NCBI GenBank assembly: GCA_000092065.1
Contig: CP000584.1
Source of the DNA: Ostreococcus lucimarinus
Taxonomy: Eukaryota
DNA: 64,000 nucleotides
Strand: one strand, 5' to 3'
Below the pieces are notes generated by a model. That model was given only the letters and a program-made list of their open reading frames with translations, was not told the DNA's origin and made no database searches. This document shows positions 3,991-64,000 of this stretch, one piece after another. Positions within the stretch are counted from its first letter, which is position 1; each line of letters starts with the position of its first letter. The position numbers were made by a program, and so were the translations under genes.

Positions 3991-4257
3991 AGACGCTCGT
4001 AGTAGTGATGAAAAAAACGTTGTTGTATAACAAGATGAACCCGGATCGATGTTCACCATGCAGCCCCCGTCTTTCGAACAGTCTTGCATGAGAGCCTAGC
4101 CCTTGACCGAGGTGAGGCACTTACCGTTGGCAGACTTATAAAGTTGAACAAAGCTAACATCCACTGTGACCTGCTGTAATGTTACAAGCGTACAAGTATA
4201 ACGAGCTGAGTCGGATGGACTTTCAATAAGTAAAAATCGTGTTGGTACATGTATGGC

Positions 4258-4307
4258 GCGCGCGCTGGCTATACTAAAAGCAGCGCGCGCTGGCTATACT
4301 AAAAGCA
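4258..4307. repeat. perfect 25-bp tandem duplication (gcgcgcgctggctatactaaaagca x2)
   Basis: Read directly. Two identical adjacent copies at 4258-4282 and 4283-4307, in the convergent 3' spacer between the SART3-like gene (stop 3990) and PRODH (stop 4326). Confidence 0.85.
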
Positions 4308-5631: not shown

Positions 5632-8568
5632 ATGGCGACGCCGCCGTGCGCGTCGTGTCGACTCGTGGAGATGGGCGGACTCGTGGACGCGACGCGACCG
5701 CCGAACGCGAACGCGATGATTTCGGATGACGACGCGGACGACGCGCGGTCGACGCGCGGGACGGCGGCGAGCGCGAGCGCGAGGGCGCGGGCGACGGCGG
5801 CGATCGATGACGACGGGCGCGAGGAGGGCGCGCGCGCGGTGAAGGCGTCGAGGGGACGGCGCGGGTGGTGGTGGACGTCGAGACGGTTCGGGACGGATAT
5901 CGCGGGCGGCGGCGAGCCGAGCGCGAGCGCGGTGGTGGACATCGTGCCTAGAGACGACGGGGGGGAGACGCGGTCGCGGATCGCGCGAGAGATCGAGACG
6001 TCGCTGACGCAGTACGTGGAAGACGCGCGAACGATGGAGATGGGGTGGGAGAAGAAGTCGCGGAGGAGGACGACGACGTCGAAAACGGTGCGGGAGCTGT
6101 GCGCCGAGGCGAGCGCGAGGACGAAACGGGTGCGAGCGACGACGATTAGAGGCGCGAAAGTGACACACATGGTGTTGAATGCGTACGCGAGGCGCGCGTT
6201 CCGTTTGGGTGCGGCCGTGGTGGTGGAGTTGACGAAGGAGGATTCAAGACGGAACGCTACGGAGGCGGCGACGAGGGGGGCGTCGTTGGCGAGAAACGCT
6301 CTTCGCGGAGTACACGTGCAGTTTCCACCTCTCGTGGGGGTGACCGTAGAAGCCCACCATGTGATTTCTGTGCTCTCGCGCATCGCGCGCGTGGTGGGTA
6401 GACCTTTTGGTGTTCTCAAGCCCAAACGACGTCGCTCGTTCGCGCGTCGAACGCCTGCGCAAGCCGACGTCGAAATCATCGGAGACGCGGATGTGGAAAT
6501 CGCGTCAGCGTCAGAGACTCCGATTCGCATGCAAGAGTTGATGCACCTTTTCGACGGCGCGAACGGCATTCGGCCAGACGAGTTCACGGAGCTTTTGTCG
6601 CCTCAGTCGATCGCGACGAATGTCGACGGCGAAGATGTGTTGCGCGTCTTTGCACCCGATTCAACGCTTCTGACGCCACAGACGGTGGACATATCGCCCG
6701 TCGCCGCGATAGACTTCTCACACGAGATGTCGTACATCAGTGACGGCGGCGGTAGGAATGATAATGTCTCACCGCAGCCGCAAAGCCGTAGCAAATCTGC
6801 GCACGACATCGCGATGTCTCCAGATCCGGAGGCAAAAGCGTTCGTTCGACGCATCGAGGACGATTTAGAACGCCTCGCGAGCGATTCTGAGGAAGGCGCG
6901 AGTTTGAGAATACTCAGCGTGGACGATGTGCGGTTCGGTTCTCGAGTGCTGCGCGAGTGGTTTCTCGCGTGTCGCAACAACGCTTGGGCAATGAACGACG
7001 TGGATAATCGAGCGCGAGAAATGACAGAAAGCCTTGCGCACGCGGTGCTTTCGCCGAAAGTAAAACTCGCTAGACGCGTTTTTGCGCTCGATAGTGAATC
7101 TGACGAGTTCGAAGAGCTCTTGGAGGAAGCTCTCACGCAGTCGTTCGCCGATTTATCCGACGAAATTGGCGAACAGCCGCCCGAGTTCGCGGCGTCTGTT
7201 GCCGCAGCAGGCAGCGAAGATGTCGCCGTGGCGTCCGAGTTGAAACCGAATGATGTCATTCAGAACGAATCTAATATATTGGACGACGCAGACGTCACGG
7301 GTGTCGCATTAGATCAAGAGCCAGTCGTAATTACGAAAGACATCGTCGAGGTGTATGAAGCGCCCGCCGTAGAAGTTGTCGTCGCGGACGAGCGATACGC
7401 CGATCAGATCCGTCGGCTCAGCGAAGAAGTGGAACGCATGAAGACTGAACAGGCTTCGATGGTGAAGATGACCGAACAACGAGACGCGGAGTTGCGGCAA
7501 TCGCTTGAACTTGAACGCGCCCAGCTGCTGGTTGAGGCGAAGAAGATTGATCCGCCGACACAGTCGTTGCAAGTACAAGAACTAGCTCAGCTAAAGGAAG
7601 AGTTAGAGCGTGTCAAGGCCGAGCAGATAGCACTGAAGGATAGATCCGAGCGCAGAGAGCGCGAGCTGAAAAAGACTTTCGCTATCGAGCGCGCCAAGTT
7701 GGAGGGAAGTCTAAGGGAGTCTTTCGCGGCGGAGCGAATAGAGCTCGAAGAAGAGTTAGCCAAGTCCATTTCTTTAGAACGAGGTGGGTTAGAGGAACAA
7801 GTGCACAAAGGTGATGAGTACCTTGATAGTGAGATCCAGCGTTTACACGAAGATCTGAATCAGATGAGGTCCGACCAGGAAAAAGTACTCATGATTGCCG
7901 CTGCACGCGAAAGTGAGCCAAGCAACGTGACAACGCCCGGTTCTCCTCTCTTTGCGCTCGACGCCGAGGCCGATGTTTCTATGGAATGGGATTTATATCA
8001 GCTTAAAGAAGAGCTCGACCGCGTCAAAACTGAGCAGTTGACAGCGTTGACGCTGACAGAAAGTCGTGAGGACGAGTTGAGAAAGTCACTCGCGTTGGAT
8101 AAGAAATCGGTTGAGGATGCCATACGACGCGAGGTGCTGCGCGCCACTGGTCAAATTGAGATGCAAAGTGTGAATGCTAGTCACCACTTTGAGCACAAGG
8201 CTACGCACCTCACACGATTGCTCAACGATGCCGAAACGCTCATGAAGTCGACCGAGGATAGGCTCAAGCTTCGTGAGCGCGAGTTGTTGAGTAATGCGGA
8301 AGGAATGATGACTCAAGCCGAAAATCGTCTCAGGCGCCGAGAGCAAGAGCTGCTAGCGCTCGCATCAACACCTCCAAGCGTGTCGCCGTTCAGAGCAGTC
8401 GACCCTTCGACACCTGCTGCGAACGCAACGGTCAGCGTCTCAGCGCTGGAACGAGCTCGCGCACGGCGACGTTTGCTTCACGAAGTCACCGACACTTTCA
8501 GCTTGAACGAAATAGTCACTCAGGCGCGCCAGTTGGCTTCCGACCTCGAGTATAGGCTCCAACGATGA
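5632..8568 (+). CDS. hypothetical coiled-coil protein (about 978 aa); N-terminal region then long heptad-rich C-terminal half
   Basis: In-frame ATG at 5632 (MATPPCASC) within track ORF 4918..8568. The first 238 codons of that ORF are GC-repeat artefact across the PRODH divergent promoter. The C-terminal half is E/K/L/Q/R-rich heptad sequence (RLSEEVERMKTEQ..., LKEELERVKAEQ...). I recognised no catalytic domain. Confidence 0.45.
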   Translation: MATPPCASCRLVEMGGLVDATRPPNANAMISDDDADDARSTRGTAASASARARATAAIDDDGREEGARAVKASRGRRGWWWTSRRFGTDIAGGGEPSASAVVDIVPRDDGGETRSRIAREIETSLTQYVEDARTMEMGWEKKSRRRTTTSKTVRELCAEASARTKRVRATTIRGAKVTHMVLNAYARRAFRLGAAVVVELTKEDSRRNATEAATRGASLARNALRGVHVQFPPLVGVTVEAHHVISVLSRIARVVGRPFGVLKPKRRRSFARRTPAQADVEIIGDADVEIASASETPIRMQELMHLFDGANGIRPDEFTELLSPQSIATNVDGEDVLRVFAPDSTLLTPQTVDISPVAAIDFSHEMSYISDGGGRNDNVSPQPQSRSKSAHDIAMSPDPEAKAFVRRIEDDLERLASDSEEGASLRILSVDDVRFGSRVLREWFLACRNNAWAMNDVDNRAREMTESLAHAVLSPKVKLARRVFALDSESDEFEELLEEALTQSFADLSDEIGEQPPEFAASVAAAGSEDVAVASELKPNDVIQNESNILDDADVTGVALDQEPVVITKDIVEVYEAPAVEVVVADERYADQIRRLSEEVERMKTEQASMVKMTEQRDAELRQSLELERAQLLVEAKKIDPPTQSLQVQELAQLKEELERVKAEQIALKDRSERRERELKKTFAIERAKLEGSLRESFAAERIELEEELAKSISLERGGLEEQVHKGDEYLDSEIQRLHEDLNQMRSDQEKVLMIAAARESEPSNVTTPGSPLFALDAEADVSMEWDLYQLKEELDRVKTEQLTALTLTESREDELRKSLALDKKSVEDAIRREVLRATGQIEMQSVNASHHFEHKATHLTRLLNDAETLMKSTEDRLKLRERELLSNAEGMMTQAENRLRRREQELLALASTPPSVSPFRAVDPSTPAANATVSVSALERARARRRLLHEVTDTFSLNEIVTQARQLASDLEYRLQR

Positions 8569-8625
8569 GCATCAAGTAGTATTCATTAAATCAATCTTTG
8601 CTACCGCTACGTTTAACCAATCGAC

Positions 8626-10704
8626 TTAAGTCGACGGGCAAAGTGCTTCTACCAAATCGCCGATTCGCACAGAGTATTCAGTCTCCTTTTCTTGTTCGTC
8701 AGCGGCTTCGTCACGGAACTTTTGTTCGATTATGAAATCTTTCCATTTCGTGCCGCGGTAACCAGCCCGCTTCATGAAAGCGGCCTTAGTTATTGTCTCG
8801 CCTTCGGGCATGCGAATACTGGACTCGCCCTTTTCATTCATGAAAAACTCGCCCAACAACTCTTTGCATTTCACCGCGAAGTTGATCGAAGCGGGTCGCT
8901 TGATCGTAATTTTTACCTTTGCCGTGCCTTTCTTTGATTCGCCTTTGACTGCGGCGACTTGAATTGTGTCTTCAGCGGGTTCTGTGGTCTGTTTCGCCGC
9001 ACTCGCCACAACATCCTTTCCTGGCGTGCTCTGTTTGGACGAGTCGCCGCCGGACGACTGGGCGGCAACATTTATGCTAGAGAGTATGCGACTCAACCCA
9101 CCTGGCGCTCGAATGACTTTTTCCAACACCTTGTCGTTCGCGGTCGTCATGTCGCGCGGCGTCAACGCTTTACTACTCGTCGCAGTCACGCGTTCAGCCG
9201 TCTTCTGCGACGAACTCGAAGAGCTACTGCTTGACGAACTCGAAGAGCTACTACTCGACGATGAGTCCGATGAGTCGCTGCTGCTAGAAGAGCTAGAAGA
9301 GTTACTACTCGACGATGAGCTACCGCTCGAACGAGACTTAATCGCTCCTGTGTTCGATTCCACGTTTTTTGGTTGCGTCGCTTCGTCTGCTTTCGCGCTG
9401 TCCTTCTCGTTGTTGGCATCCTTTTCGGGGAGTGAAGTTAGATCAGCCTTGCCGCTCAGCGACGCTTCGTCGTCCTCTTTCGCGCTCGCCGCTGTTCCGT
9501 CTTCGGCATCTTGCCACATCGGCATTTCACCATCGTACCCGAGTTCGCCCAGTATCGCTTGCGTAAGCATTCTTTCGACGACGCCAAACCTTTGAGATGA
9601 GTGTCTTGGAATTTGTTTCGTAAATCCGTCAACCAGGCAAGTCGGCACGCGTTTATGTTGTGCGTAACCGGATCGGTACAGGCGGGCGATAAGAAGCGCG
9701 ACCGCGAGAAAGTCGCCGACTTCCCTATTTACGGCAGGGGTCATTTTTGCAATCTTTTCGCCCAGTTCATTGAAAATCAGGGTGCCGGTTTCGTACTGCA
9801 CGATGGCGATTTGCTGCGTCACGGCATTCGTCGTTCTCACCAGAGTGTCGAAGGTATCCATATTCAAACGTTCCAGTGCGTTTATGAAAGCTTTACTTAC
9901 GAGCAACGTCTTTACGAAGACGCTATACTGCACACCAGGATTTTTATCGAGCAATGCCTTGACTTCGTCGTACGTCGTTGACGTACTACGCTTGACCGAG
10001 GCCGCTCCCGGCGCCGGAGCTATTTCTTCCACCATCTCCCAAGGACTAGCCTCTGGAACTTCTTCCACGCGCTTGCGTTTCGCCGGTTGCGTCTCAGTTT
10101 TGTCAGCACTCGCGTCTCTATCCCGTTTGTCTCCGGCTTTAGTGTCTTTCGTTGTAACCTTTTCGACGTCCTGGCGTAGCGCAGGCGTCTCACGCTTCGC
10201 GAAAGCCTTCGGCGTCTCTACCGGCGCCAATGCCACGGGCATCGGTGTCGTCGCAAACGCCGTCGTATTCAAGTTCATCGGCGTACCCGCGCTCGCAAGC
10301 GGTGAGATCGCAGGACTAAACGGCGAGTTCACCAACAGCACGCTCACGTTTACCTTTCTGTTTCTCTCCTCCAAAGCCTCCGGCGTGCACATCGCGCGAT
10401 ACGCCGCGATCCCTTCATCCACCCCGCGCTCGGGTTCCACTTGCGCAAACAACGAATCGAACGCATCGTATTTCATCGATTCATCGTCCAAGTCGATCCA
10501 CTTCTTCACGCCGCTAAAGATTCTCAGCGCGTGCAAGTCGCCGACGACGGCTGAGCCGAACCTCGCGCCGTACTTCTCATCGTGCTTGCGTCGAATAGCT
10601 TCCCTCGCCGCTTTCACCCCTGCCTTGACGTCGATGCTCACCGTGAACGACGTCCCGACGCACGTCTCCACGTCGACGCGTCGCACGTCGCTCTCGCGCG
10701 GCAT
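8626..10704 (-). CDS. hypothetical protein with N-terminal Ubl/PB1-like segment and long poly-Ser tract
   Basis: Minus ORF 8626..10749. The track start is TTG; the first ATG is 10704..10702 (MPRESDVRRVDV). There is a poly-Ser run ([21 protein letters not shown]...). The globular middle section (YDEVKALLDKNPGVQYSVFVKTLL...) and the C-terminal section (AKVKITIKRPASINFAVKCKELLGEFF...) match no family I recognise. Confidence 0.45.
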   Translation of the reverse strand: MPRESDVRRVDVETCVGTSFTVSIDVKAGVKAAREAIRRKHDEKYGARFGSAVVGDLHALRIFSGVKKWIDLDDESMKYDAFDSLFAQVEPERGVDEGIAAYRAMCTPEALEERNRKVNVSVLLVNSPFSPAISPLASAGTPMNLNTTAFATTPMPVALAPVETPKAFAKRETPALRQDVEKVTTKDTKAGDKRDRDASADKTETQPAKRKRVEEVPEASPWEMVEEIAPAPGAASVKRSTSTTYDEVKALLDKNPGVQYSVFVKTLLVSKAFINALERLNMDTFDTLVRTTNAVTQQIAIVQYETGTLIFNELGEKIAKMTPAVNREVGDFLAVALLIARLYRSGYAQHKRVPTCLVDGFTKQIPRHSSQRFGVVERMLTQAILGELGYDGEMPMWQDAEDGTAASAKEDDEASLSGKADLTSLPEKDANNEKDSAKADEATQPKNVESNTGAIKSRSSGSSSSSSNSSSSSSSSDSSDSSSSSSSSSSSSSSSSSSSQKTAERVTATSSKALTPRDMTTANDKVLEKVIRAPGGLSRILSSINVAAQSSGGDSSKQSTPGKDVVASAAKQTTEPAEDTIQVAAVKGESKKGTAKVKITIKRPASINFAVKCKELLGEFFMNEKGESSIRMPEGETITKAAFMKRAGYRGTKWKDFIIEQKFRDEAADEQEKETEYSVRIGDLVEALCPST

Positions 10705-13767: not shown

Positions 13768-14018
13768 TAGCGTACACCAAGTCACCGCAGCCACACTTGA
13801 GCCCCACTGGGACCATGCCCAGTGAAACGGCGTAGCTACGGGAGTCGTTGGTAGCTGCTTAACCGCAGCGACGCTTGCTTTGTCTGTTTTAATCAAACTT
13901 CGTCTGGCAACTTGCCAGTCGTTGTGACGACGCGAAGAGACTAAAATACTACATAAACAACGTTGTTATGAAACACCAATCTCGTAATGACACACTCTAC
14001 TTACTACGCTAGACGAAG

Positions 14019-25153: not shown

Positions 25154-25428
25154 ATGCGCGCGACGTCGTCGGCGCGCGCGTCGACGTCGACGTCGACGCG
25201 CGCGCGGGCGCGGGCGCGCGCGCCGCGCGGGCGCGCGCGCCGCGCGAGCGTCGCGAGGGACGACGCGTGCGGACGCGAACCGTTGCCGTGGCGCGACGGC
25301 GGCGACGAGACGCGCGACGGCGTGCGACTGGGGCACGCGTCGGCGTTCATCGGGTGGGAGGTGTACCTGGACGATGATCCGGAGACGCTCGTCGGGGTCG
25401 TGGCGGACGTGGCGGCGATGTCGGCGGC

Positions 25429-25466
<38 letters not shown>

Positions 25467-26944
25467 GCGGACGCGAAGACGAAGGCGAGGAAGCGATCGC
25501 GGGCGGACGCGACGCGAAGACGATGACGACGATGACGAAAACGATCGATGGAGATGATTTGAGCGAGGACGAACGGGTGTTTTTGTCGCGGTTGAACGTG
25601 TCGTTGTCCATCGAGGAGGCGTTTGATTCGGACGACGCGTTTGATTCGGACGACGCGTTTTTGCTCCTCGTCGAGGGATTGCACGCGACGTCGCTCGGTG
25701 AGCGACCGCTTCATTACGTTCCGTTCGTGCCGACGATGTTTCCTCGATGGATTCCGAACGCGCAGGCGTTGTTTCTCGATCCGCCCGCGGGGTTGCTGGA
25801 TCTGGCGTTGCGCGAAGTGCAACTCAACGAACTTCGCAACGATTTGTTGCCTTTTTGTCGTACGCTCGGTGCGGATGTGTATGGGATGCCCCAGCGTCTT
25901 TCGTTGATCAAACAAGACCAAAGGCAGCTCGTGAAGCGCGTCGAGGCGCTCGGAGATTGGCGCGAAGTCGCGTTGGAATTGGATTTGAAACCAGACGCCG
26001 CGCCGTGGTATTATTGGGACAACATAGATAATTTAGAAGATGCGTTGTTGAAGCTCGTGGACGCGTTTTGGTTCGAAGAAACGGACGGTGACGACGTGTT
26101 TTGGTATAACGACATCAGCGGTGCGCTGAGAGTGACACCCCCGACCGATGGCGACGGAGGCGGTTTAGACGTGCCGGTGATGCCGACCATGGGCAACTTG
26201 ATGGAGGCGAGACGCTGGGATTTGCACCACGCCGTCGTACTTCACGGAGGATACCGCGCGGTGGCGAAAGAGCTCGGATGGACACACGCGCGACGAATTG
26301 AAAACAGGCACTTGCTTTCCTTCGATGCGCTACGCGAGGAGATTCTTGAGCTCGTCGAAGACGAGTCGCTCGTCGAACTCGGCGTTCGTCCCGGACAGCT
26401 TCCGTGCGCGTCGCAACTCGAAGAGGTTGATCGAGAGGATTTGGTGAAATTCATCAAGATCCACGGCGGATTTTCCGCCGTTGCAAGGCGTTTAAAGCTC
26501 GAGCCTAGCAAAAGTGCTCGAGTGAAGTATCCCACGGTGACCGCTGCGGCGAAGGCGTTAAGAGCATTCGCCGTTGAGCACGACATCACGACGACGATGA
26601 GTCCTCGCTTGACTAAACGAGTCGTCGTCTTCGTGCCTTCCGATACCGAGCTCCGCGAGCACGGACGAAACGATTTGCGGTACGCCCTGCGACAATATTC
26701 CCCACACGTCATAGCCGAGGTTGGTAAGATGAGCTTGCGACAGTCGCGAATGTCGTACGTCGAGGCGAGAGCAGAGCTGCGAAAATGGAAGTTTGAAGTC
26801 GGCAAGCGCTCGGTATTCTTGAATTGGTGCAAAGCTGGGAACAAGCCGTGGAATATGCCAGCAGTTCCTCAAACTTACTACGCTAAAAGTGGCGATTGGG
26901 TGTCGTGGGAAGACTTCATGGGCCGCGGCGAATCGGAACGTTGA
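25154..26944 (+). CDS. hypothetical organelle-targeted protein with acidic tract and two to three Myb/SANT-like HGG[YF]xAVAxxLG repeats
   Basis: ATG at 25154 (MRATSSARAST..., Ser/Thr/Arg presequence) within track ORF 24905..26944. Acidic tract DEDEDEDEDEDDGGREDEGEE, with AFDSDD tandemly repeated at DNA level. Repeats: WDLHHAVVLHGGYRAVAKELGW and EDLVKFIKIHGGFSAVARRLKL. Trp-rich C-terminus: KPWNMPAVPQTYYAKSGDWVSWEDFMG. Confidence 0.4.
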
Positions 26945-42604: not shown

Positions 42605-43939
42605 ATGTGGGAGGTGGTCGAGGACCGGTTGGCGCGCGAGCGCACGACGTGCTGCGCGTGGAATCGACGCGGGACGATGCTGGCGTGCGGGACGTCGAAC
42701 GGGACGATCGTGATTTGGTGCTGGGACACGAGAGCGACGACGCGCGAGTTTCGACGCGACGAAGACGACGGCGAGCGGGCGGCGGTGCTGAGCGTGCACT
42801 GGAGCCTGGACGGGAGGAAGATCGCGGCGGCGAAATCGGATGGGGTGGTGGAGGTGTGGGACGCGCTGGAGGAGGACGTGATCGCGGTGATGTCGAACGT
42901 GGGGCTGTGTTCGAGCGTGAGCTTCGCGGCGTCGAACGCGAGCGGAACGACGGTGATCGTGAGTCCGAGCGTGGGGCGGGCGCCGTACGTGCGCGGGACG
43001 AGCGCGCGAGGGCAGAAAGAGGCCGAACTGCCGTCGTCGCACGATGTGGCGGTGACGGGTTTGGCGGTGTCGAGTAAAAAGGGGAGGTACGTCTTCGTCG
43101 GCGACGCGCGGGGAACGGTGTCCGTCGTCGACGCGTCGGGGGAGCTGCGACTAGCGCAGTCGATTTCGATCCCAGACGCGACGTTGGTGAAGAGATTAGA
43201 ACTGTGTAGAAATGGCAAACACTTGCTCGCGGTGACGAATGGGCAGAAAATATGTGGTTTCGACGTCGACGAAGCCGCGAGCGACGGCGAAGACGTGCTG
43301 ACGAGGATGGTGGAGTACGAGAGCCCGTCCGCCAGCCGATTGCAGTGGAGCGCGGCGGCGTATCCATGGAACGGCGAGTACGTTTACGGTATGTGCAGTG
43401 GCGCCGCGCACGAAATGCACGTGTGGGATCGCGCGTCTGGAGAGTTGAAGTGCGTGCTCGAAGGTCCGGCCGAGGCGAAGGGCGTGGTTCAACTCGCGGC
43501 GCATCCGATTCGAGACGTCGGCATCGCGCTCGGAAGCAACGGCAATATTTACGTTTGGGCGCGCAAGCATAAAGAGGACTGGAGCGCGTTTGATCCCACA
43601 TTCACGACTTTGGTCGATAACAAGGAGTACGTGGAGAAGGAAGACGAATTCGACGCCAAGCCGCCCGTCGAGAAGCAGCCACCGCGCGCGCTCGAGGCGC
43701 TCGATCCGGCGCGGCTGCCTGATTTGTTAAAGCCGACCGTGAATGATTACTACACGGACGACACGGACGATGATGTCTTGCACGCACTTCCGATTCGAAT
43801 CAAACCCAACCCGGAAGTGGCGAAACTCATGGAGGAGCGCAAGGCGAAATGGGCCAAGAAGGCGGCGAGAAAGGAACGCGAGGAGCGCGAGAAGACAGAG
43901 GCGGCGAAAAAGGCGAAGGAAACTGGCGGAGAAAACTGA
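42605..43939 (+). CDS. RBBP5: COMPASS/Set1-complex WD40 subunit RBBP5 / Swd1
   Basis: ATG at 42605. WD repeats from CCAWNRRGTMLACGTSNGTIVIWCW. The C-terminal block NIYVWARKHKEDWSAFDPTFTTLVDNKEYVEKEDEFD matches RBBP5 [35 protein letters not shown]. Lys/Glu-rich tail. Confidence 0.85.
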   Translation: MWEVVEDRLARERTTCCAWNRRGTMLACGTSNGTIVIWCWDTRATTREFRRDEDDGERAAVLSVHWSLDGRKIAAAKSDGVVEVWDALEEDVIAVMSNVGLCSSVSFAASNASGTTVIVSPSVGRAPYVRGTSARGQKEAELPSSHDVAVTGLAVSSKKGRYVFVGDARGTVSVVDASGELRLAQSISIPDATLVKRLELCRNGKHLLAVTNGQKICGFDVDEAASDGEDVLTRMVEYESPSASRLQWSAAAYPWNGEYVYGMCSGAAHEMHVWDRASGELKCVLEGPAEAKGVVQLAAHPIRDVGIALGSNGNIYVWARKHKEDWSAFDPTFTTLVDNKEYVEKEDEFDAKPPVEKQPPRALEALDPARLPDLLKPTVNDYYTDDTDDDVLHALPIRIKPNPEVAKLMEERKAKWAKKAARKEREEREKTEAAKKAKETGGEN

Positions 43940-43990
43940 GTAGAATAGTCTAATATCACACTAAAATCGTCTAGGAAAAAACCAGCAAAA

Positions 43991-45310
43991 TCACTTTGAG
44001 CGTTCCACCGCGCGTTTGGCGAGCTCTTTGAGCGCACGTCTGCAGTGCATCGCGTACTTGGACTCTGACGCGGGAAGACGGTCAATCGCAGCGATGGCCA
44101 AGTCGCAGTGCTCACGCGCGAGTTCTTGAGTTCGCGCGATGCCCTGGCTGCTCTTTACGAGCTCGTGCGCGCGCTGGACGTCGCCAGAGTGCTTGAACCT
44201 TCGCTCGACAAGGTCTGAGAGTTCAGGGAATTCCTGCACGGCGAAGAGCACCGGCGCCGTAGCGATGCCTTCTTTCAAGTCGCCAAGCGTCGGTTTTCCG
44301 AGAAGAGACTCAGATCCGATGAAGTCGAGAACATCGTCTTGGAACTGAAACGCCAATCCGAGGTTTTTCCCATAATCGTACGCCAGTTGCGCGCTTTCTT
44401 CCCCGTGCCCGCCGAGCAAGGCGATGGCTTTTGAACTATTAGCGATGAGACTCGCCGTCTTATAGTACGTCTTCTTCACGTAGTGATCCATGGACGACAA
44501 ACTTTCCGGTTTTGCCGTCATTTGCATCACCTCTCCCGCGACGAGATGCTCGAGAACTCGAGACAAGAGCTCGATGACTTCTGTATTACGCAACGACGCC
44601 AGCGTCACCGACGCCCTCGCGAGTAAGAAATCGCCCGCCAAAATCGCCAGCTTGTTGCCCACCTCCAAATTCAACGCCCGCAGTCCCCGACGCGTGGCGG
44701 CGTTATCGAGCACGTCATCGTGCAACAGACTCGCGACGTGGATCATCTCCGCAATTTCCGCCAGGCGTTGTTGTCGTCGCCGCACGTCCGCCGGCGCCTG
44801 GTGCGCGGGCGCGTGATCCGTTTCTCTCCACCCTCCCTGCGCCGCGCTCGTCATCACCCCGTTCGTCATCGCGCTCGCCATGAGCATCAAAACCGTCGGT
44901 CGCACGCGTTTCCCCTCCGCACCGAGCTTGAAAAAATACTCGCTCGCCGTCGACAACGCGGGTATATCGCTCGTCACCGCCCTTCGCATCCGTTCCCCGA
45001 TCGCCCTCAGCTCATCGTCCACGATCTTGAACGGATTTATCGGCACCGCGTCATCGTACGCGAGCTCTTCCCTCGGCACCGCGTGCGCGCTCGCGAACCC
45101 GACGCTCGGTCTCGCTCGCGCGTCGCCCGCCGCCCTCGCGTTCGCCGCGCCCTCCCCTTCGCCTCGCGTTCGCGCGCGCCAATCGCCGCGCGTGCCGCTC
45201 GCGATCGCTCGGGTCCCTCGATCGAGTCCTCGCGCGCGTTCGGCGACGTCCAGAGCGCGCGCGCGCGCCCGCTCGGCGACGCGCGACGCGATTCGAGCGA
45301 ACGAAGGCAT
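43991..45310 (-). CDS. long-chain trans-polyprenyl diphosphate synthase (solanesyl/decaprenyl-PP synthase, COQ1/SPS type) with organellar presequence
   Basis: ATG at 45310..45308. Both Asp-rich motifs are present (LLHDDVLDNAATRRG and FQFQDDVLDF), plus GDFLLARA and KTASLIANS. There is an insertion between the first helices, as in mitochondrial Coq1/PDSS1-type enzymes. Confidence 0.8.
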   Translation of the reverse strand: MPSFARIASRVAERARARALDVAERARGLDRGTRAIASGTRGDWRARTRGEGEGAANARAAGDARARPSVGFASAHAVPREELAYDDAVPINPFKIVDDELRAIGERMRRAVTSDIPALSTASEYFFKLGAEGKRVRPTVLMLMASAMTNGVMTSAAQGGWRETDHAPAHQAPADVRRRQQRLAEIAEMIHVASLLHDDVLDNAATRRGLRALNLEVGNKLAILAGDFLLARASVTLASLRNTEVIELLSRVLEHLVAGEVMQMTAKPESLSSMDHYVKKTYYKTASLIANSSKAIALLGGHGEESAQLAYDYGKNLGLAFQFQDDVLDFIGSESLLGKPTLGDLKEGIATAPVLFAVQEFPELSDLVERRFKHSGDVQRAHELVKSSQGIARTQELAREHCDLAIAAIDRLPASESKYAMHCRRALKELAKRAVERSK

Positions 45311-49683: not shown

Positions 49684-49748
49684 GCGCCAACGAAAACCCG
49701 AATGAATGAATTGTAGTGCTACGAACGAAATAACTAAAATACAAGCTG

Positions 49749-51650
49749 CTAATCAGTCTTGCGCATCACCGTCGAGTCGTCGCTGGCGAGCAAAATCTTG
49801 AGTTTGCGACTAATTTCTACGATTGCCTCGCGGCGCTTTTCTACAATCGGCGCGTTGGGATTTTCGTCCCTCTTCTTCTCTTCGTCGTCGTCACACGCAC
49901 TGCCGTGCGCGTGCTCATCACGGGCGCGGGCCATGGTCGTGATAACGTCGACGACGTTTGCGTTGAGTGACTTGAGTGATGTCGTCACGTGTCCCTCATG
50001 TTTGAAAAGTTGTCGGCCACTCGCCTTTGCCGCTCGCTCGCTCGCTCGGGTTAGCAATAACCCGTCTCTTAACGCGTGCACGCTAGCTTCGTCGTCGAGT
50101 GTCGACGCAAATCTATCGAGACATTTCGCAAGATGTGACTCGGCATCTGGATCCCGCAACGCAATCTTCCACATTGCCCCGTGCATCGCGAACGTCCCGT
50201 CAAACGAGAACTCGGCGCCAGCCAAAGCCGTGCGCACACCTGAGACGCGACTGACGAACTCGTACACTCCATCGCACGCGAGCGTCGATAGCAGCAATGC
50301 TCGTCGAACGGTTTCAGCAAGCGGCGATCGATGTAAAGCGATGAAGATGTTCACTAGTGCTCGTAAACATCCAGTGCGCAGCAATCTTTCGCCCACATCC
50401 TTCACGACGACGGCGTTCGCATTTGTGGTGTAAAACGCGAGCAATAATGCGCTCAAACCGACTGTGTCCTGCCAATCTGGATCTTCCTTGCGTGCATCCA
50501 TGACGCGCAGACTGTGCTCTAAAGTCTTCGTTACGACTGGGATTGCTCGGTGCACGTGTGCCCAAAGTTTACTTCTTGCCGAGGAAGCGCTGTTCTCCCC
50601 TTCGCCAAGTGCCTGTACACCCATCGTCTCTGCGCCGAGGCGCAAGCACAAATACGCCAACAGCTCCAACGCAATTCGGTGATCTTCAGTCTGCTCGTCC
50701 ATCGCGTCGCTCTGTGCGAACTTGAGCGCATCAAGCGCGCGCGTCAAGCCCGCTTCGACGCCCAACTTGCCGCCCGCCGCGATGGCCCATCGCTCGCGCA
50801 GCGCGCGCAAGGGAATCGTTCGTAGCGCGCGCCTTTCGACGTCGCACGACGCGCACATCGCCTCGAATAAGTCCATCAATCCCGATGCGACGTCGAGGCG
50901 TTCCCAATCGGAATTCACTCCCACATTCGTCGACGTAGCGCCGACGCGCGCCGGCAGCAACTCGCTCATCAGACCGCGCAACTTGGCGTTCACGACCTCT
51001 CGTTTCGACATTTTCGCGTAACGCGCGTCATCTTTAACGGGCGAAAACCACGAGACGGTAGATTCCACCGGCTCCCACGCGTCGTCGTCGTCATCGCCAT
51101 CTTCCCGAGGTTCCGAGACGATCGGCGCGTTCGCCGTCGCGCCGTTCGCGCCGTTCGCGAGCGTCTCGCGCGGCGCCTCCGCCTCCGTCTCCGCCTCCGC
51201 CTCGTGCTCCTCCGGCGCGTACGCCCGGAGCGCCTCGAACGCATCGTCATCGCTCATGCGCATCACCGCGCGCGGCACCTCGACGTACACCACCGCCCGC
51301 AAGTTCCGAAACGCGTCGCCGCGCGCGTCGTCGCCGTCCTCCCCATCGTCCCTCGCGTCGCTCGCGCCGCCTCCCTCTCGCGCGTTCCGCGCCAGCGCCC
51401 GCGTCAGCGCGAACGGCGTTCGCGCGAGCCCGCCGTCCGCGCGCGCGGCGTCGCGCATCGCCGCCGCGAGCGCGCGCACTTCGTCGTCGCTCACCAGCGG
51501 ATAATCGAATCCCAACTTTTCGTGCGCCTCCCTCGCGAGCGCCGCGCGGCTCGCGCCGTCGCGCGCGTTCGAGGCGTTCGGGCGCGCGTTCGCCGTCCTC
51601 ACCGCGTCCTCGAGCGCGCGCGCGATCGACGACGCCGTCGCGGCGTCCAT
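49749..51650 (-). CDS. hypothetical helical-repeat (ARM/HEAT-like) protein; family not recognised
   Basis: ATG at 51650..51648 (MDAATASSIARALED), the first ATG compatible with ISY1 exon 1 at 51732; the track ORF top is 51746. About 633 aa, Ala/Leu-rich helical segments, acidic insert. I saw no catalytic motifs. Confidence 0.4.
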   Translation of the reverse strand: MDAATASSIARALEDAVRTANARPNASNARDGASRAALAREAHEKLGFDYPLVSDDEVRALAAAMRDAARADGGLARTPFALTRALARNAREGGGASDARDDGEDGDDARGDAFRNLRAVVYVEVPRAVMRMSDDDAFEALRAYAPEEHEAEAETEAEAPRETLANGANGATANAPIVSEPREDGDDDDDAWEPVESTVSWFSPVKDDARYAKMSKREVVNAKLRGLMSELLPARVGATSTNVGVNSDWERLDVASGLMDLFEAMCASCDVERRALRTIPLRALRERWAIAAGGKLGVEAGLTRALDALKFAQSDAMDEQTEDHRIALELLAYLCLRLGAETMGVQALGEGENSASSARSKLWAHVHRAIPVVTKTLEHSLRVMDARKEDPDWQDTVGLSALLLAFYTTNANAVVVKDVGERLLRTGCLRALVNIFIALHRSPLAETVRRALLLSTLACDGVYEFVSRVSGVRTALAGAEFSFDGTFAMHGAMWKIALRDPDAESHLAKCLDRFASTLDDEASVHALRDGLLLTRASERAAKASGRQLFKHEGHVTTSLKSLNANVVDVITTMARARDEHAHGSACDDDEEKKRDENPNAPIVEKRREAIVEISRKLKILLASDDSTVMRKTD

Positions 51651-52881: not shown

Positions 52882-53952
52882 ATGCCCCGCCCGCCCGGGC
52901 GCCCGCGCAAAGCGACGCACGACGTCGACCTCGCGCGCGATTGTTGGGAGTTCATCTTTCGACGTTTTCTCGACAGCGCCGACCCGGACGTCGCGGTGCC
53001 GTCGCCGCCCGAATGCGAACCGCCGAATGCGAACCGGCTCGTCGAAGTCCTCGGAGGATTCCTAGACGACGATGAGGATGAGCGTTTCTGGCGAAACAGG
53101 CACCAGCACGAAGAGCGGGTGCGTTTCTGGCACAACAGGCGCCAGCACCGCAAGACGACCGCGAAACGCGTGGACTTTGTTCGAACGCAAGCGCGCACGC
53201 TGCTCGCGCTGCCATCGGTGAGCAAGACGTTTAAGGAGGTGTGCGATGAAGGTGGATTGTTTGCGGATATGTGCGATACTTTGTGGGCGCGGGTGAAGCG
53301 ATTGGACGACAGCTTGGAGAATGGGGACAAACAAGCGCCGCCTACGATGACTTCGGCGCAGAAGTTGCGATTGTTTGAGGGCACGGGGTGCCAAAGCTGC
53401 GACAATCATCCGCTCATAAGCTTCAAGTGGGTGTTCTGGGGGTTCGGAGCGCGGCTGTGCCAGAGGTGCATGCGAGTGCGCATGGTGACTGAAGAGGTCC
53501 TACAGAGGGACCCGGATACGCTGCCGGAACACTACCGAGGTTTGCCATTCTCCAGCGATAGATACAGCGCATATGGAAACCCAGCTCCTGGTCGCAAGCT
53601 ATACTGGCGCGCGGACGTGGATGAGCGAAAGTCTGTCACACGCGAGCGTCAAAAACGCCAGCGTGAAGCCGAGGAAAACGAAAAAAAATTGTTAGAGAAG
53701 CGAAAGCGAAAGCAATTCCGCGAGGAAAAGCTTTCTCAGCGCGATGGTGTACGAGAGCAACGGAAGAAGGATATCATTCACATGATGACGACGACTTTCG
53801 ACGTGACTGAGGCGCAACTAGAAACGAGCGTATCGTATCGCAAGCACATCGCGATGGCGCGCCCGTTGACTGCGAGATTTCATCGCACGCACATGAGACA
53901 GATTTTAGATGAGCTTCCCGAGGAATGCCGAAGAAGACGACGCAAGAACTGA
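52882..53952 (+). CDS. hypothetical protein with AT-hook-like PRPPGRPRK N-terminus, possible F-box-like segment and Cys cluster
   Basis: ATG at 52882 (track start 52855 is GTG). MPRPPGRPRKATHDVDLARDCWEFIFRRFL. Later cluster GCQSCDNHPLISFKWVFWGFGARLCQRCM. Lys/Arg/Glu-rich tail. I recognised no family. Confidence 0.35.
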   Translation: MPRPPGRPRKATHDVDLARDCWEFIFRRFLDSADPDVAVPSPPECEPPNANRLVEVLGGFLDDDEDERFWRNRHQHEERVRFWHNRRQHRKTTAKRVDFVRTQARTLLALPSVSKTFKEVCDEGGLFADMCDTLWARVKRLDDSLENGDKQAPPTMTSAQKLRLFEGTGCQSCDNHPLISFKWVFWGFGARLCQRCMRVRMVTEEVLQRDPDTLPEHYRGLPFSSDRYSAYGNPAPGRKLYWRADVDERKSVTRERQKRQREAEENEKKLLEKRKRKQFREEKLSQRDGVREQRKKDIIHMMTTTFDVTEAQLETSVSYRKHIAMARPLTARFHRTHMRQILDELPEECRRRRRKN

Positions 53953-53982
53953 AAAGGAATCGCAAATGTAACAAATCAAATT

Positions 53983-55233
53983 CTACGCCAGACCAGCCAA
54001 ACAATCAATGAGTAACGTGTAGCCCTCCGGAACGTCTTCGCCGTGATGCACCGCGCTTGCAATAACAGCTAATTCGTTGATATCGATGTGCTTCGCCAAG
54101 AACAAGAGTAAGTGGAAATCGCGCAATCGTTCTCCGTACGGTTTGTCTTTGCGCAATGCGTCCTTTAAATCGTCGACGGTTTGCACGGGATGCAAACGGT
54201 TCTCGACGGGAAACGTAGTTGAAATCGCGCCTTCGTGGTCCAAGATCGGCACGGTGACGAGAAACATGTCGTTATCAACTGCATTCACGTCGTTGATGCT
54301 CGGACCGTCACGCACGATGACCTCGTTCGTGAGCTTGGATACTCCCTTCAACTCGTCTCCATCCTCGTCGACGCCGCACTCACCGGTGAACCAACCACGC
54401 TCCTGAACCTTCATCGCCGCATCACTCAGCTGAAATGCCTCGAAAGACACCTGCCAGTTGTCGTCTTCGTCTTCGAACGTGCTCACCACGGCGGTGACAA
54501 ACTCCTTGCCGAACTTTGACTGCAACCGCGCGACGCGCGACACCTCTCTCGCGCTCAGCGTAAAGTCGCGTTCATCCTTCGGCGTACTGATTATGCACCC
54601 CACACGGATCATTCCCAACGCACCCGCGAGCGCGTCCGCCTTTTCATCCTCGAGCGTGTCTTCCAACACCTCCACATCTTCCTCTGTGCCCTCTTGCTCT
54701 GGCTCGTAAATCGCGTCCACCCGAGTCTTCCCGTCGTCGTCTCGCGCGCCGTACAACCATCCGAACCTCACCTGTTTAAATCCCAACGTATAATTCACGT
54801 AGCTCTGAAACACATTCGCCGCGTTCGCATCGAACGACACGCTCACGCAGTGCGGCGCCTCTTGCCTTTCGATCCGTACTTGCGCCGCGATCATGTCGTC
54901 GACGGTCATCTTTCGTCCCGTGAGTCCTCTCGCCGCGTCCCGCACCGCCGCCGTCGTCTTCGTCGGCTCTCTTTCGCACCCATACATCAAGTGTACCACC
55001 GCCCCGTTCGTGTCGATTCCGCACGACGCGATCTTCGCCCTTCCGTTCGCCATATCTTTGAATTCTTCCGGTGTTTTGCTCGTCAGCACATCGAGCGACG
55101 TCGAGAGAATCTGCTCGTCTTTCGGCACTTTCAGCTCGGTTTCGAGGATTTCTTTGAGTTTCGCGACGGTGATGTCGGAGGAAGGGACCGTGATGCGTTC
55201 GGTACCGTCGCGCGTGCGCACGCGGACGATCAT
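53983..55233 (-). CDS. NPL4: NPL4 (Cdc48/p97 cofactor), compact form lacking the NPL4 zinc-finger region
   Basis: ATG at 55233..55231. N-terminal Ubl (MIVRVRTRDGTERITVPSSDITVAKLKEILE). MPN-like core colinear with NPL4: FGWLYGAR (cf. FGYLYGRY), VDAIYEPEQEGTEE, KFGKEFVTAVVSTFEDEDDNWQVSFEAFQLSDAAMKV (cf. KFVTAVATGGPDNQVHFEGYQVSNQCMALV), DFHLLLFLAKH (cf. DFHLLLFLVTN). The zf-NPL4 Cys-rich segment between Ubl and MPN is absent and the ORF is continuous. Confidence 0.75.
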   Translation of the reverse strand: MIVRVRTRDGTERITVPSSDITVAKLKEILETELKVPKDEQILSTSLDVLTSKTPEEFKDMANGRAKIASCGIDTNGAVVHLMYGCEREPTKTTAAVRDAARGLTGRKMTVDDMIAAQVRIERQEAPHCVSVSFDANAANVFQSYVNYTLGFKQVRFGWLYGARDDDGKTRVDAIYEPEQEGTEEDVEVLEDTLEDEKADALAGALGMIRVGCIISTPKDERDFTLSAREVSRVARLQSKFGKEFVTAVVSTFEDEDDNWQVSFEAFQLSDAAMKVQERGWFTGECGVDEDGDELKGVSKLTNEVIVRDGPSINDVNAVDNDMFLVTVPILDHEGAISTTFPVENRLHPVQTVDDLKDALRKDKPYGERLRDFHLLLFLAKHIDINELAVIASAVHHGEDVPEGYTLLIDCLAGLA

Positions 55234-60620: not shown

Positions 60621-61589
60621 ATGATCGTCGCGGCGCGCGCCACCGCGCGCGTTCAGTGCGCCGCACCGCGCGCCCGCCGCCATCGTTCGCGCCGTCACCG
60701 CGTCGCTCGGGCGTCGTCCGGCGTGAACGATGACGACGCGTCTGACGCAGCCATGTACGAAGAACTCGAGAAGATTAACGCCGCGAACAACAGTAAGAGC
60801 GCGAGTGACTGGATCGGGGCGTGGTCGAAGGCGATCACCGACCCCCCGAGCGAGGCAGAGGTGGAGAAGATGCGAGCTGCGGCGATGGCGGCCGAGGAAG
60901 AGCGCTTGGCGGAGGCGAGGAGCTATCGGTACGTCTTCGCGCACGATCTGCTGAGCGGATCGGGGGACTCGTTCGCGGGTAAATATCTCAAGGATGCGCT
61001 AGGAATGATTGATATCGAGCTGGAGACGCCAGACTTGGTGTGTGGGAACGCGGAGTACACGGTGTCGAGCGCGTTGGAAAAGTTGACGGCGGCGCTGAAC
61101 GGCGGGGAAGGGCGGAAGGAGCGACCGGTTCGGTTGATTGGGTCGAGCACGGGGGCATTGGTGGCGGCGCTGTACGCGGAAAGGAACCGAGACAGGGTTG
61201 ACAAAGTGTTTCTTCTCGCGCCGACGTGGGGGCTGGCGAACATTTTGACAAACTTTGAGAAGAGTTACGGCGTCAAGTTCAGCAAGGCGTTCGTCGACGA
61301 CGCGAGCACGTTACCCGAGTATCCGACGGTGACTTGCCCGGCGTATATCGTGCATGGACACGATGACGACGTTTCGCCGTTGGACAACTCCGCGCGTTGG
61401 ATGCAGATGGCGTCGCAGTGGATGCGACAGGAAGGTGATTCCGACGAAAACGTCGCCGAGAGACGACTTCTCGAGGTGAGCGGCTTAGGGCACGGCGTTG
61501 AGACCGCGCTTCCAATGTCGATGGGGCGGTTCACAGAGTTTTTTAAAATTCCAAGAGTTGACTTGTACTTGCGTGAAAGAGAGCCTTGA
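60621..61589 (+). CDS. alpha/beta-hydrolase fold esterase (YqiA/UPF0227-like) with presequence; C-terminus as annotated runs into an AT-rich tandem repeat
   Basis: ATG at 60621 (track start 60561 is TTG). Nucleophile elbow GSSTGA (LIGSSTGALVAALYA). Acid-bearing loop IVHGHDDDVSPLD. Distal His in SGLGHG. The last about 17 codons (TEFFKIPRVDLYLREREP) are encoded by 38 %-GC sequence inside repeat copy 1 with atypical codon usage, so the true C-terminus is uncertain. Confidence 0.5.
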   Translation: MIVAARATARVQCAAPRARRHRSRRHRVARASSGVNDDDASDAAMYEELEKINAANNSKSASDWIGAWSKAITDPPSEAEVEKMRAAAMAAEEERLAEARSYRYVFAHDLLSGSGDSFAGKYLKDALGMIDIELETPDLVCGNAEYTVSSALEKLTAALNGGEGRKERPVRLIGSSTGALVAALYAERNRDRVDKVFLLAPTWGLANILTNFEKSYGVKFSKAFVDDASTLPEYPTVTCPAYIVHGHDDDVSPLDNSARWMQMASQWMRQEGDSDENVAERRLLEVSGLGHGVETALPMSMGRFTEFFKIPRVDLYLREREP

Positions 61590-61645
61590 CAGAGTTTTTT
61601 AAAATTCCAAGAGTTGACTTGTACTTGCGTGAAAGAGAGCCTTGA
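61534..61645. repeat. perfect 56-bp tandem duplication, AT-rich (about 38 % GC), each copy ending in TGA
   Basis: Read directly. Copy 1 at 61534-61589 and copy 2 at 61590-61645 are identical (cagagttttttaaaattccaagagttgacttgtacttgcgtgaaagagagccttga). The TGA ending copy 1 is the annotated stop of the upstream hydrolase gene. Confidence 0.9.
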
Positions 61646-61806
61646 AGGAAGATGCATCGCCGACGTTGACTTTCCAAATTTAGAGCCATCAAACCAAACT
61701 AGGAGTGGCGCATAGCACGGCGCATAGCAAGCTTCGTGCGACGCGCGCAATGGGATCTGGGGACGGCGCGTTAGCTTGAAGATACACCATCGCGCGCCAC
61801 TACGCT

Positions 61807-62679
61807 ATGGCGTCCAGCACCGACGTCGAGCGGTTGCTCGCGCAGACACAGAGGGAGAGGAATGTTCGCGCCACGCTCAAGATGCAAATCAAGCAGCACG
61901 CTCAAAAGGAACGCGATTTCGCGGAGTGGGAAGAACGTCTCGTCGACAAGCAGCAGCGAATCGAGGATAACATCGTAAACTGTGATGATATGCTGCGCCA
62001 GGCGGATGCGAAACGCGAGCACGCAGAGGACAACGTCAAACGGGACGCGGAGTCCCAGCGAAGTAGCATGCGCGACATCGCCAGGCTGCGCGCACAACTT
62101 GAAGACATCCGCGCAAAGTGTGCACACGTTTCAGATGAAATTCAGGCGAGCTCGAAATACTTTGAGTTTTTAAGCCGCTCGAGTCAAATCGTGCTTGCGC
62201 GCAATTCGTCCAAGGCTGAAGACGTTTACGAACTCGTGGAAGAGATCCTCGATCGTCACCGGACCCTCGTGATGGCGAATCATCAATTACAAGATCAGTT
62301 CAAAGTGACCGCACGGTCGCACGACGACTTGACCGACGCGCATAACAAGTACGTGGACGATTCGCGCGAAAACATTTTGGCGTTGAACACGCGCCTCGGC
62401 GGCATGAAACGCTTGCTCGAGTCTAACATGCGAAGCACTAGCGCGAGCATGACGACGATGACACACTTCGCCAAAAAGTGTGCGCTTAAGCACTCGTCCG
62501 TGAGCTTGGTGAAGATGGCGACTGAGAACATATTCGTCAAGTGCACGTCGCGCTCGCACGTCGCCCGCTGCGCCACAGGACGCGAGCACGCGAGCGACAC
62601 TAGCGTGCGACTGAGCATCATACGACACTTCCTCTGCGACATGCGTGCTATCGCCCGCGAGACGACCTGTGATAGATAA
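61807..62679 (+). CDS. CCDC42/CFAP73-like (DUF4200) cilia/flagella-associated coiled-coil protein
   Basis: ATG at 61807. Blocks EEILDRHRTLVMANHQL (cf. CCDC42 EVIARYKTLVSMRHDL) and SLVKMATENIFVKC (cf. GTIKMATLNLFQIV), with the same spacing. Gene sits in a locally lower-GC block. Confidence 0.55.
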   Translation: MASSTDVERLLAQTQRERNVRATLKMQIKQHAQKERDFAEWEERLVDKQQRIEDNIVNCDDMLRQADAKREHAEDNVKRDAESQRSSMRDIARLRAQLEDIRAKCAHVSDEIQASSKYFEFLSRSSQIVLARNSSKAEDVYELVEEILDRHRTLVMANHQLQDQFKVTARSHDDLTDAHNKYVDDSRENILALNTRLGGMKRLLESNMRSTSASMTTMTHFAKKCALKHSSVSLVKMATENIFVKCTSRSHVARCATGREHASDTSVRLSIIRHFLCDMRAIARETTCDR

Positions 62680-62715
62680 TAGACTCTCTTCTTTAAAACA
62701 CTACAGCTGCGTCCA

Positions 62716-63231
62716 TCATCTGAACCGCTTCGCCTTCCGCCGTTCGCTCCGCTCGCGTCGACGCTTCTCCTCCTTCGTCTCCTCCCGCTCCTCGTTCTCC
62801 TCCGCCCGAGGCGCGAACACGTATGGCAGCACGAATTTCGTCACTATCATGTACCCCGCGACCAAAGGCACGATCAGCGTCACCAACCAAAACCGATCCG
62901 AATACGTCGACGTCGCCATCGCGAACGCGCCGACGTAGATCAAATCCTGATAATACTCCGTCAACCCCCCGCTCAGCGACTCCCCTCCATCGAGCACTTC
63001 GCCGTTCTCCCCGAACGTCGGCTTCGCGTACGCGCGCAGCGAGCCCAGCGACGCTCGACACGCGAGCGCGGTGACGGCGAACACGCACAGGTGAAACAAT
63101 CGCACGCTTTTCCAGCGAAACACGACGCGCACGACGACGTGCAGCGCCATCGCGCCGTTCAGGACATCGCTCAGAAACTTCAACTTCGCGCGGTTCTCCT
63201 CCAACCGCTTCTTCGCGCCGGATTTCGCCAT
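62716..63231 (-). CDS. TMEM208: TMEM208 / SND2 (DUF788) ER membrane protein
   Basis: ATG at 63231..63229 (MAKSGAKKRLEENRAKLKF, cf. human [25 protein letters not shown]), the last 171 codons of minus ORF 62716..63834. Three hydrophobic helices and a basic tail (EEKRRRERSERRKAKRFR) as in TMEM208. Confidence 0.7.
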   Translation of the reverse strand: MAKSGAKKRLEENRAKLKFLSDVLNGAMALHVVVRVVFRWKSVRLFHLCVFAVTALACRASLGSLRAYAKPTFGENGEVLDGGESLSGGLTEYYQDLIYVGAFAMATSTYSDRFWLVTLIVPLVAGYMIVTKFVLPYVFAPRAEENEEREETKEEKRRRERSERRKAKRFR

Positions 63232-63333: not shown

Positions 63334-64000
63334 ATGCTCGAGACGGCGACGCGCGCGCGCGCGCCGAGCGCGCCGGCGCGCGATCCGCGCGCCGCGCGCG
63401 CGCGACGCGCGACGGCGAGGACGACGCCGCGTCAGCAACGGTGCGCGGTGACGTCGGCGCGCGCGCGCGTCGTCCGCGCGGTGCTCGCGGACGATAAAAC
63501 GCACGCGAACGCGCCGGCGTCGTCGGTGATCGTCGGCGGTGGACCCACGGGGCTGGCGTGCGCGATCGCGCTCGCGCGGCGGGGCTGGGGGAACATCGAG
63601 GTGTGGGAACGCCTCGCGAAGCCGCCGTCGAGCGATTCTTCGGTCTGGGGGGATGCCTCGCGATCGTATAACGTCGGATTGAGCGGCCGAGGGCAAGCCG
63701 TGCTGAAGGATCTCGGGGTCTTCGATGCGGTGATCGATAAGTGCGCGGTGGTGAAGGGACGCATGGACTGGGGACCGAACGGCGAGCCGAAGGAGCGCTT
63801 GGCGAATAAGACGTACGATACGCAAGTGATTCAAAGGGACAGGCTGGTTTCGGTGCTCGTGGAAGAGATCGAGAAGAAATATGCGGGGAAGATTTCGGTA
63901 TCTTACGACGTCGCGTGCGTCGATTGTGAGTTTGGTGCGGACGGAGTCACGCTCGAACGCGGAGCGTGCGGCGAAAACTGCGATCTCGCCGCCGCGCGCG
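63334..64000 (+). CDS. FAD-dependent monooxygenase, kynurenine 3-monooxygenase-like (3' partial, runs off window end)
   Basis: Not in the ORF track because it has no stop inside the window. ATG at 63334 (MLETATRARA...) opens a stop-free frame to 64000. After an Arg/Ala presequence comes the Rossmann FAD motif VIVGGGPTGLACAIALARRG. KMO-like blocks follow: RSYNVGLSGRGQAVLKDLG, VKGRMDW, VIQRDRLVSVLVEEIEKKY, FGADG. Confidence 0.55.
   Translation, partial: MLETATRARAPSAPARDPRAARARRATARTTPRQQRCAVTSARARVVRAVLADDKTHANAPASSVIVGGGPTGLACAIALARRGWGNIEVWERLAKPPSSDSSVWGDASRSYNVGLSGRGQAVLKDLGVFDAVIDKCAVVKGRMDWGPNGEPKERLANKTYDTQVIQRDRLVSVLVEEIEKKYAGKISVSYDVACVDCEFGADGVTLERGACGENCDLAAAR

Follow-up and report, generated by a model that had tools for sequence, protein, structure and literature searches.

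The window, by which we mean the whole stretch of 64,000 nucleotides that was analysed, holds a gene for an α/β-hydrolase, with a DXP reductoisomerase (DXR) gene upstream of it and a co-directional gene for a DUF4200 protein downstream, and the same gene order is found in every related contig. The hydrolase matches the Pfam family PF12146 (Hydrolase_4) just over threshold, with 30.8 bits against a cut-off of 27, and a profile of the hydrolase family gives weak matches to solved S33 and α/β-hydrolases (E from 1e-3). The motifs GSSTG, HGHDDD and GLGHG appear in the protein in the canonical order of nucleophile, acid and histidine, with the G-x-S-x-G elbow first, and from this order we infer their likely catalytic roles. 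All three are largely conserved among the full-length orthologues, one of which has GASTG and another GTSTG. An identical protein of 322 residues is on record for an Ostreococcus sp. (UniRef100_A0A7R9T290, an entry whose accession series probably derives from a transcriptome), and the exact 322-residue hydrolase is found on hundreds of marine metagenome contigs.

The start of the hydrolase gene is modelled differently in public records, giving proteins of 278, 288 or 322 residues; in the window, an alternative start at 60753 leads to the 278-residue form. The 44-residue N-terminal extension encoded by 60621-60752 is rich in Arg, Ala and Ser, and extensions of similar composition are found in the orthologues, which suggests that it is an organelle-targeting presequence. 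We also observed that the distant homologues P0010-P0012, which are 45-47% identical to the hydrolase over the whole alignment, are called at 177-194 residues and that their homology ends directly after VRLIG, just ahead of the nucleophilic Ser. The gene caller may have read through an intron, or else a frameshift, that their lineage has there.

The 3' end of the hydrolase gene consists of two identical 56-nt units that stand head to tail, contiguous and without a spacer, at 100% identity (Table 1). Searching the window with the 56-mer returned two matches with 0 mismatches, where 0 are expected from 100 shuffles, and Tandem Repeats Finder reports the segment 61533-61645 with a period of 56, 2.0 copies, 100% matches and a score of 226, which is the top score in the window. 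Because there is an A at 61533, at 61589 and at 61645, the register of the repeat is ambiguous by 1 nt. The four nucleotides that precede copy 1, copy 2 and the sequence after copy 2 are TTCA, TTGA and TTGA, respectively, and a repeat search (family D1) accordingly pairs 61530-61585 with 61586-61641 at 98% identity, with one C/G mismatch. At the junction of the two copies, GAGCCTTGA is followed directly by CAGAGTTTT.

Copy 1 contains 2 nt of a Thr codon, 17 codons (EFFKIPRVDLYLREREP) and the TGA of the hydrolase. The GC content of the unit is 37.5%, compared with 61.0% for the whole window and 62% for the hydrolase gene minus its tail. The first-pass annotation of this DNA had described two identical 56-bp copies of about 38% GC, the first of which supplies the last 17 or so codons and the stop codon of the hydrolase, and the measured composition, the absence of mismatches and the translation all agree with that description; the 65% GC that it gave for the genome is higher than what the window measures. 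It was also right that copy 2 follows directly and ends in TGA, but this second TGA is out of frame relative to the hydrolase ORF, as 56 is not divisible by 3. The span of 61476-61645 that it had marked mixes two separate things, both of which are present: the repeat and a GTGAGC hexamer further upstream, to which we return below.

Table 1. Features of the hydrolase locus, in window coordinates
Feature	Position	Strand	Evidence or remark
α/β-hydrolase CDS, 322 aa, with Arg-rich N-terminal putative presequence	60621..61589	+	Translation; Pfam Hydrolase_4
GTGAGC hexamer, within codons GAG GTG AGC (E V S) that open the EVSGLGHGVE motif	61476..61481	+	Motif and everything downstream collinear in orthologues
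TTCA at left edge of the duplicated segment; resembles the unit-ending TTGA (61586-61589, 61642-61645)	61530..61533	+	Exact microhomology is the final A only
Copy 1, ancestral: last 17 codons and TGA of the hydrolase	61534..61589	+	Sole copy in 31 conspecific contigs; peptide tail conserved in other Ostreococcus lineages
Copy 2, derived duplicate, non-coding: first 56 nt of the 3' UTR/intergenic spacer	61590..61645	+	Identical to copy 1; absent from 31/31 conspecific contigs
Last 30 nt of the unit; contig L035 (Logan k=31 contig, SRR1179203) starts exactly here	61616..61645	+	L035 opens with GACTTGTACTTGCGTGAAAGAGAGCCTTGA, then AGGAAG
Ancestral 161-nt spacer, from hydrolase stop to ATG of next gene; now 217 nt	61646..61806	+	Contig comparison
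TCCAAATTTAG, near-palindromic spacer motif, outside the duplication	61673..61683	.	Position conserved across Ostreococcus lineages; unique in window
DUF4200 protein gene, 290 aa, co-directional, downstream	61807..62679	+	Pfam PF13863, E = 2.5e-17

Searching with a DNA pattern and with the hydrolase, DUF4200 and DXR proteins, we gathered 33 conspecific loci on 31 distinct contigs, two of which are about 930 kb long. In the flanks, most of these contigs share 99.0-99.9% identity with the window, and L006 and L017 about 96-98%. Exactly one copy of the unit is present in each of the 31 distinct contigs, all of them from metagenomes; the gap in the alignment is a clean 56 nt, and the junction of copy 1 and copy 2 is absent from every one of them. 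Orthologous loci in other Ostreococcus lineages likewise have a single tail only. A 28-mer spanning the junction has no match in the JGI metagenome contigs, a search of low power given that only two contigs there carry the element. Since all 31 conspecific contigs are single-copy, copy 2 is the derived state, and on this comparison we regard the duplication as private to the sequenced strain or lineage and as a 1-copy/2-copy polymorphism, as had been anticipated when alleles of one and two copies were proposed. That the two copies have not diverged at all is consistent with a very recent event, which was also the initial reading of the repeat. We stress that a rare two-copy allele may exist in nature, as short-read metagenome assemblers follow the majority path.

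The spacer between the hydrolase stop and the start codon of the next gene is 161 nt long in most of the single-copy contigs; in the remainder, small unrelated indels bring it to 160-185 nt. The window also differs from the population elsewhere at this locus. At 61499 it has a T (GTT, a synonymous difference) where 8 of 8 aligned population contigs have C, and its DUF4200 protein is a rare variant that was matched by one of the 20 contigs gathered at that stage. Judged by these two differences, the window represents a distinct haplotype.

We weighed an assembly or finishing artefact, in which the strain would be single-copy and the reference would wrongly repeat 56 bp. Such an error would agree with the single copy in 31 of 31 conspecific contigs and with the missing junction 28-mer in the JGI metagenome contigs, only two of which carry the element. 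It is nevertheless very unlikely, on the evidence of a separate sequencing run assembled by a different method. An exact look-up of the DUF4200 variant of the window led to L035, a Logan contig of run SRR1179203, which agrees with the window at every one of 2,385 nt, while all other contigs differ at 2-18 sites; because of this identity, which the others do not share, SRR1179203 comes from the same strain or haplotype. Logan assemblies are built on a de Bruijn graph with k=31 in which each 31-mer occurs once (PMC12424806). A unit that is present twice therefore creates a branch at its end, and the contig that flanks it begins with the shared 30-mer. L035 fits this expectation: its start corresponds to 61616 in the window, exactly 30 nt (k-1) ahead of the end of the unit, and from there it continues into the right flank. 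The single-copy Logan contig L033, which served as the control, passes through the same region unbroken. The break in L035 supports the duplication indirectly, yet specifically. The left-hand contig of SRR1179203, sought via the upstream DXR protein, was not among the matches listed. Private differences such as the T at 61499, which set the window apart as a haplotype of its own, also argue against an artefact. Finally, Sanger or long reads exceed the 112 bp of the repeat, so that a false duplication is improbable. The reads of SRR1179203 may not be fully independent of the data of the reference strain. With the contig break at the predicted base and the junction itself read only in the window, we conclude that the duplication in this strain is probably genuine rather than an artefact of assembly.

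The low GC content of the unit has to be seen against the other gene ends of this genome. Over 29 ORFs in the window, GC averages 0.43-0.47 across the 50 nt that follow the stop codon, compared with about 0.60 elsewhere, and then recovers. With the hydrolase locus excluded, 59% of the 56-nt windows with a GC content of 37.5% or less have their centre no more than 60 nt away from a stop codon. Positions this close to a stop codon amount to 4.6% of the window. An AT-rich patch is a normal property of gene 3' ends here and not a foreign composition, and native low-GC patches at gene ends should not be taken for foreign DNA in this genome. At the hydrolase, the dip sets in some 50 nt ahead of the stop codon rather than at it, and the tail residues F, F, K, I, Y and L also favour A or T in their codons. 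Further examples of the dip after the stop codon lie at 8543-8636, 13917-14011, 43915-44008, 49685-49766, 53929-54021 and 62668-62725. The dip is strongest between convergent genes, and it probably marks the 3'-end formation zone of a compact genome.

This property of gene ends opens a reading in which the duplication is functional or under selection, with tandem 3'-end processing or termination signals, or an altered promoter spacing, changing how the hydrolase or the DUF4200 gene is expressed. The AT-rich gene-end patch would then be a 3'-end formation signal shifted about 50 nt into the hydrolase coding sequence, the conserved C-terminal codons would double as that signal, and the duplication would provide two tandem signals together with a longer spacer before the next promoter. 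We consider this very unlikely. The duplicated segment does lie in the signal zone, the AT-rich dip marking gene 3' ends throughout the window; the spacer is 35% longer, at 217 nt instead of 161 nt; and the 112 nt of the pair fold somewhat better than their shuffles, with a z-score of -2.14. However, a single unit folds no better than its shuffles (z = -0.95), and a better fold of the pair would be expected of any sequence that has self-complementary stretches and is duplicated; the corresponding z-scores for the 3' UTR and for the reverse strand are +1.36 and +0.18. The region 61300-61900 has 0 matches in Rfam on either strand at E up to 1, the synonymous sites of the tail are not unusually conserved, and the two-copy allele is found in no population contig. 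The suggestion in the first-pass annotation of a 3'-UTR structural element is likewise not supported by the fold and Rfam results. With the structured RNA elements of 3' UTRs that are collected as Rfam families, the repeat shares its position just past a stop codon; it differs from them in matching no family at E up to 1, in that the fold energy of the unit does not stand out from that of shuffles, and in that half of it is conserved coding sequence. If the functional reading were true, the duplication would be a natural experiment on the working of 3'-end signals in Ostreococcus.

Outside the duplication, the spacer contains the near-palindromic motif TCCAAATTTAG. A motif of this kind stands 25-65 nt past the hydrolase stop in every Ostreococcus lineage examined (the window, L019, L020, L024, L025 and L026), while the rest of the spacer has diverged. 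Its forms are TCCAAATTTAG, TTCCAAATTTAG, TCCAAATATAG and TCCAAATTTGGA, the last of which includes CCAAATTTGG, the CC(A/T)6GG pattern of a CArG box. From this positional conservation, the motif may be a locus-specific regulatory or 3'-end element. We rejected TCCAAATTTAG as a general 3'-end motif: in the window it occurs at this locus only, and at least two chance matches are obtained in 14 of 100 shuffles.

Composition was also the ground on which the first-pass annotation had proposed an inserted element or a footprint, and a foreign or mobile origin, in which a mobile element, a transposon footprint or a viral fragment brought the AT-rich C-terminus, can appeal both to the 37.5% GC of the unit in a window of 61% and to the tail itself, which has the lowest GC (0.37) and the lowest GC3 (0.33) of the 33 ORF ends examined in the window. 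The orthologues make such an origin highly improbable. In five other Ostreococcus lineages, with 64-90% protein identity, the orthologous proteins end at the same position in FFKIPRVDLFLREREP, FFHLPRVDLYLRDS, FFSLPRVDLNLREQDP or FFQLPRVDLYLRDREP, so that a conserved tail pattern, FF.[IL]PRVDL.LR..., runs through all of them. The DNA that encodes this tail has a GC content of 0.39, 0.42 and 0.46 in the nearer lineages (GC3 0.39-0.56), and of 0.52-0.56 in two farther ones. Compared with an orthologue of 85% identity, 7 of 54 nt of the tail differ, which is about the gene-wide rate, and conservation at its synonymous sites is not unusual. On this evidence the tail evolves as ordinary coding DNA, with no sign of special constraint or of foreign origin. 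Because five other Ostreococcus lineages keep the peptide tail, we take the 56-nt unit to be ancestral coding sequence and not an insert.

Searches for further copies lead to the same locus or to nothing. With up to 3 mismatches allowed, the 56-mer has no further copy in the window; a 35-nt core of the unit is found in two JGI metagenome contigs only, both of which represent this locus and are single-copy; a 24-nt core has no match in viral contigs; and blastn against phage records gives no match. We found no terminal inverted repeats or inverted-repeat arms flanking the unit, and there is nothing between the copies. The proposal of inserted DNA thus fails on the two comparisons that had been suggested along with it, the C-termini of orthologues, which share the tail and are AT-rich in the nearer lineages, and other copies of the 56-mer, of which there are none in the window, the JGI metagenome contigs or the viral contigs; low GC near stop codons is, besides, normal here. 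The conserved tail and the absence of dispersed copies from the window and the contigs searched refute a foreign or mobile origin for practical purposes. Like a transposon target-site duplication or excision footprint, the repeat is a direct repeat of host sequence. Target-site duplications, however, are typically 2-20 bp long and flank an element or its remnant, whereas here 56 bp are repeated with nothing in between, and neither terminal inverted repeats nor further copies turned up in the sequences searched.

The idea that the GTGAGC hexamer at 61476 is a true splice donor, with the C-terminus spliced in from elsewhere, has in its favour that the hexamer is present and fits a generic GT donor, but it is vanishingly improbable, given that its use would remove GLGHG with the likely catalytic His, the conserved helix and the tail, that all full-length orthologues are collinear through 61476, and that the same 322-residue protein is in UniProt for an Ostreococcus sp. 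The hexamer lies inside the conserved motif EVSGLGHGVE, which contains that His; the frame stays open past it, and the downstream pattern EVSGLGHGVETALPMSMGRF.EFF..PRVDL is conserved and collinear in all full-length orthologues. An intron at this position was rejected on the collinearity of the orthologues and the uninterrupted coding frame.

From these observations, we think it highly probable that the repeat is a recent 56-bp tandem duplication, private to a strain or lineage, of the native 3' end of the hydrolase gene, most likely produced by replication slippage or microhomology-mediated repair. The duplicated segment comprises the last 17 codons and the TGA. With the reading frame and its stop codon intact in copy 1, the protein is unchanged, and the sole effect of copy 2 is to extend the 3' UTR by 56 nt, taking the spacer from 161 to 217 nt. 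The change is probably neutral, neutrality being assumed here. Homology at the breakpoints is weak: 1 nt is exact (the A), and TTCA and TTGA match at 3 of 4 positions.

In all essential respects the repeat corresponds to a short tandem duplication of the slippage or microhomology-repair kind. The copies are identical and head to tail, with no spacer; their presence or absence is polymorphic, and relatives are single-copy; and they lie in an AT-rich, mostly non-coding gene-end zone together with other segregating indels. An exact microhomology of 1 nt leaves the precise pathway indistinguishable from sequence. There is some resemblance to a nascent minisatellite or VNTR, in that the unit is tens of bases long and is present in two tandem copies that could expand or contract; in contrast to such loci there are two copies only, and among the 31 population contigs there are no alleles of at least three copies and no array. 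The event is an ordinary small indel polymorphism, a kind of mutation that is well known. Events like it are frequent in the region, where indels of 4-56 nt also segregate within the same 6.4 kb, all of them intergenic.

Several other repeats and indels were observed in the window and its population counterparts. A perfect duplication of 2 x 25 nt (GCGCGCGCTGGCTATACTAAAAGCA) lies at 4258-4307, 19 nt past the stop codon of the minus-strand ORF 4326-5195, and matches the 56-nt event both in class and in the kind of place where it lies. Three contigs from different samples share a common complex insertion of 24 nt (L006 at about 3990-4040, L032 at about 400-450 and L037 at about 1330-1380, equivalent to 61660-61690 in the window), which lies 20 nt further downstream than the 56-nt event and duplicates a TTGACTTTCCAAATTTAGAGCCA segment that includes the conserved spacer motif. 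The 161-nt spacer holds in this insertion another duplication polymorphism, independent of the first. In L006, 56 nt of very GC-rich sequence, at 63346-63401 in the window, are missing; the sequence is unrelated to the duplicated unit, and the equal length is coincidental. Lastly, a perfect in-frame 18-nt repeat of 2.3 copies (GCGTTTGATTCGGACGAC) is found at 25619-25660 within the long plus-strand ORF 25154-26944, where it adjoins an acidic repeat region rich in GAC and GAG (25429-25550).

The biological weight of the duplication is small, the protein being unchanged and the event an ordinary small insertion polymorphism. It does offer a clean 1-copy/2-copy PCR marker that distinguishes this strain or haplotype from the wild Ostreococcus sampled in metagenomes, and, as a perfect short tandem duplication in an AT-rich 3' zone, it adds a data point on the indel spectrum of the Mamiellales.
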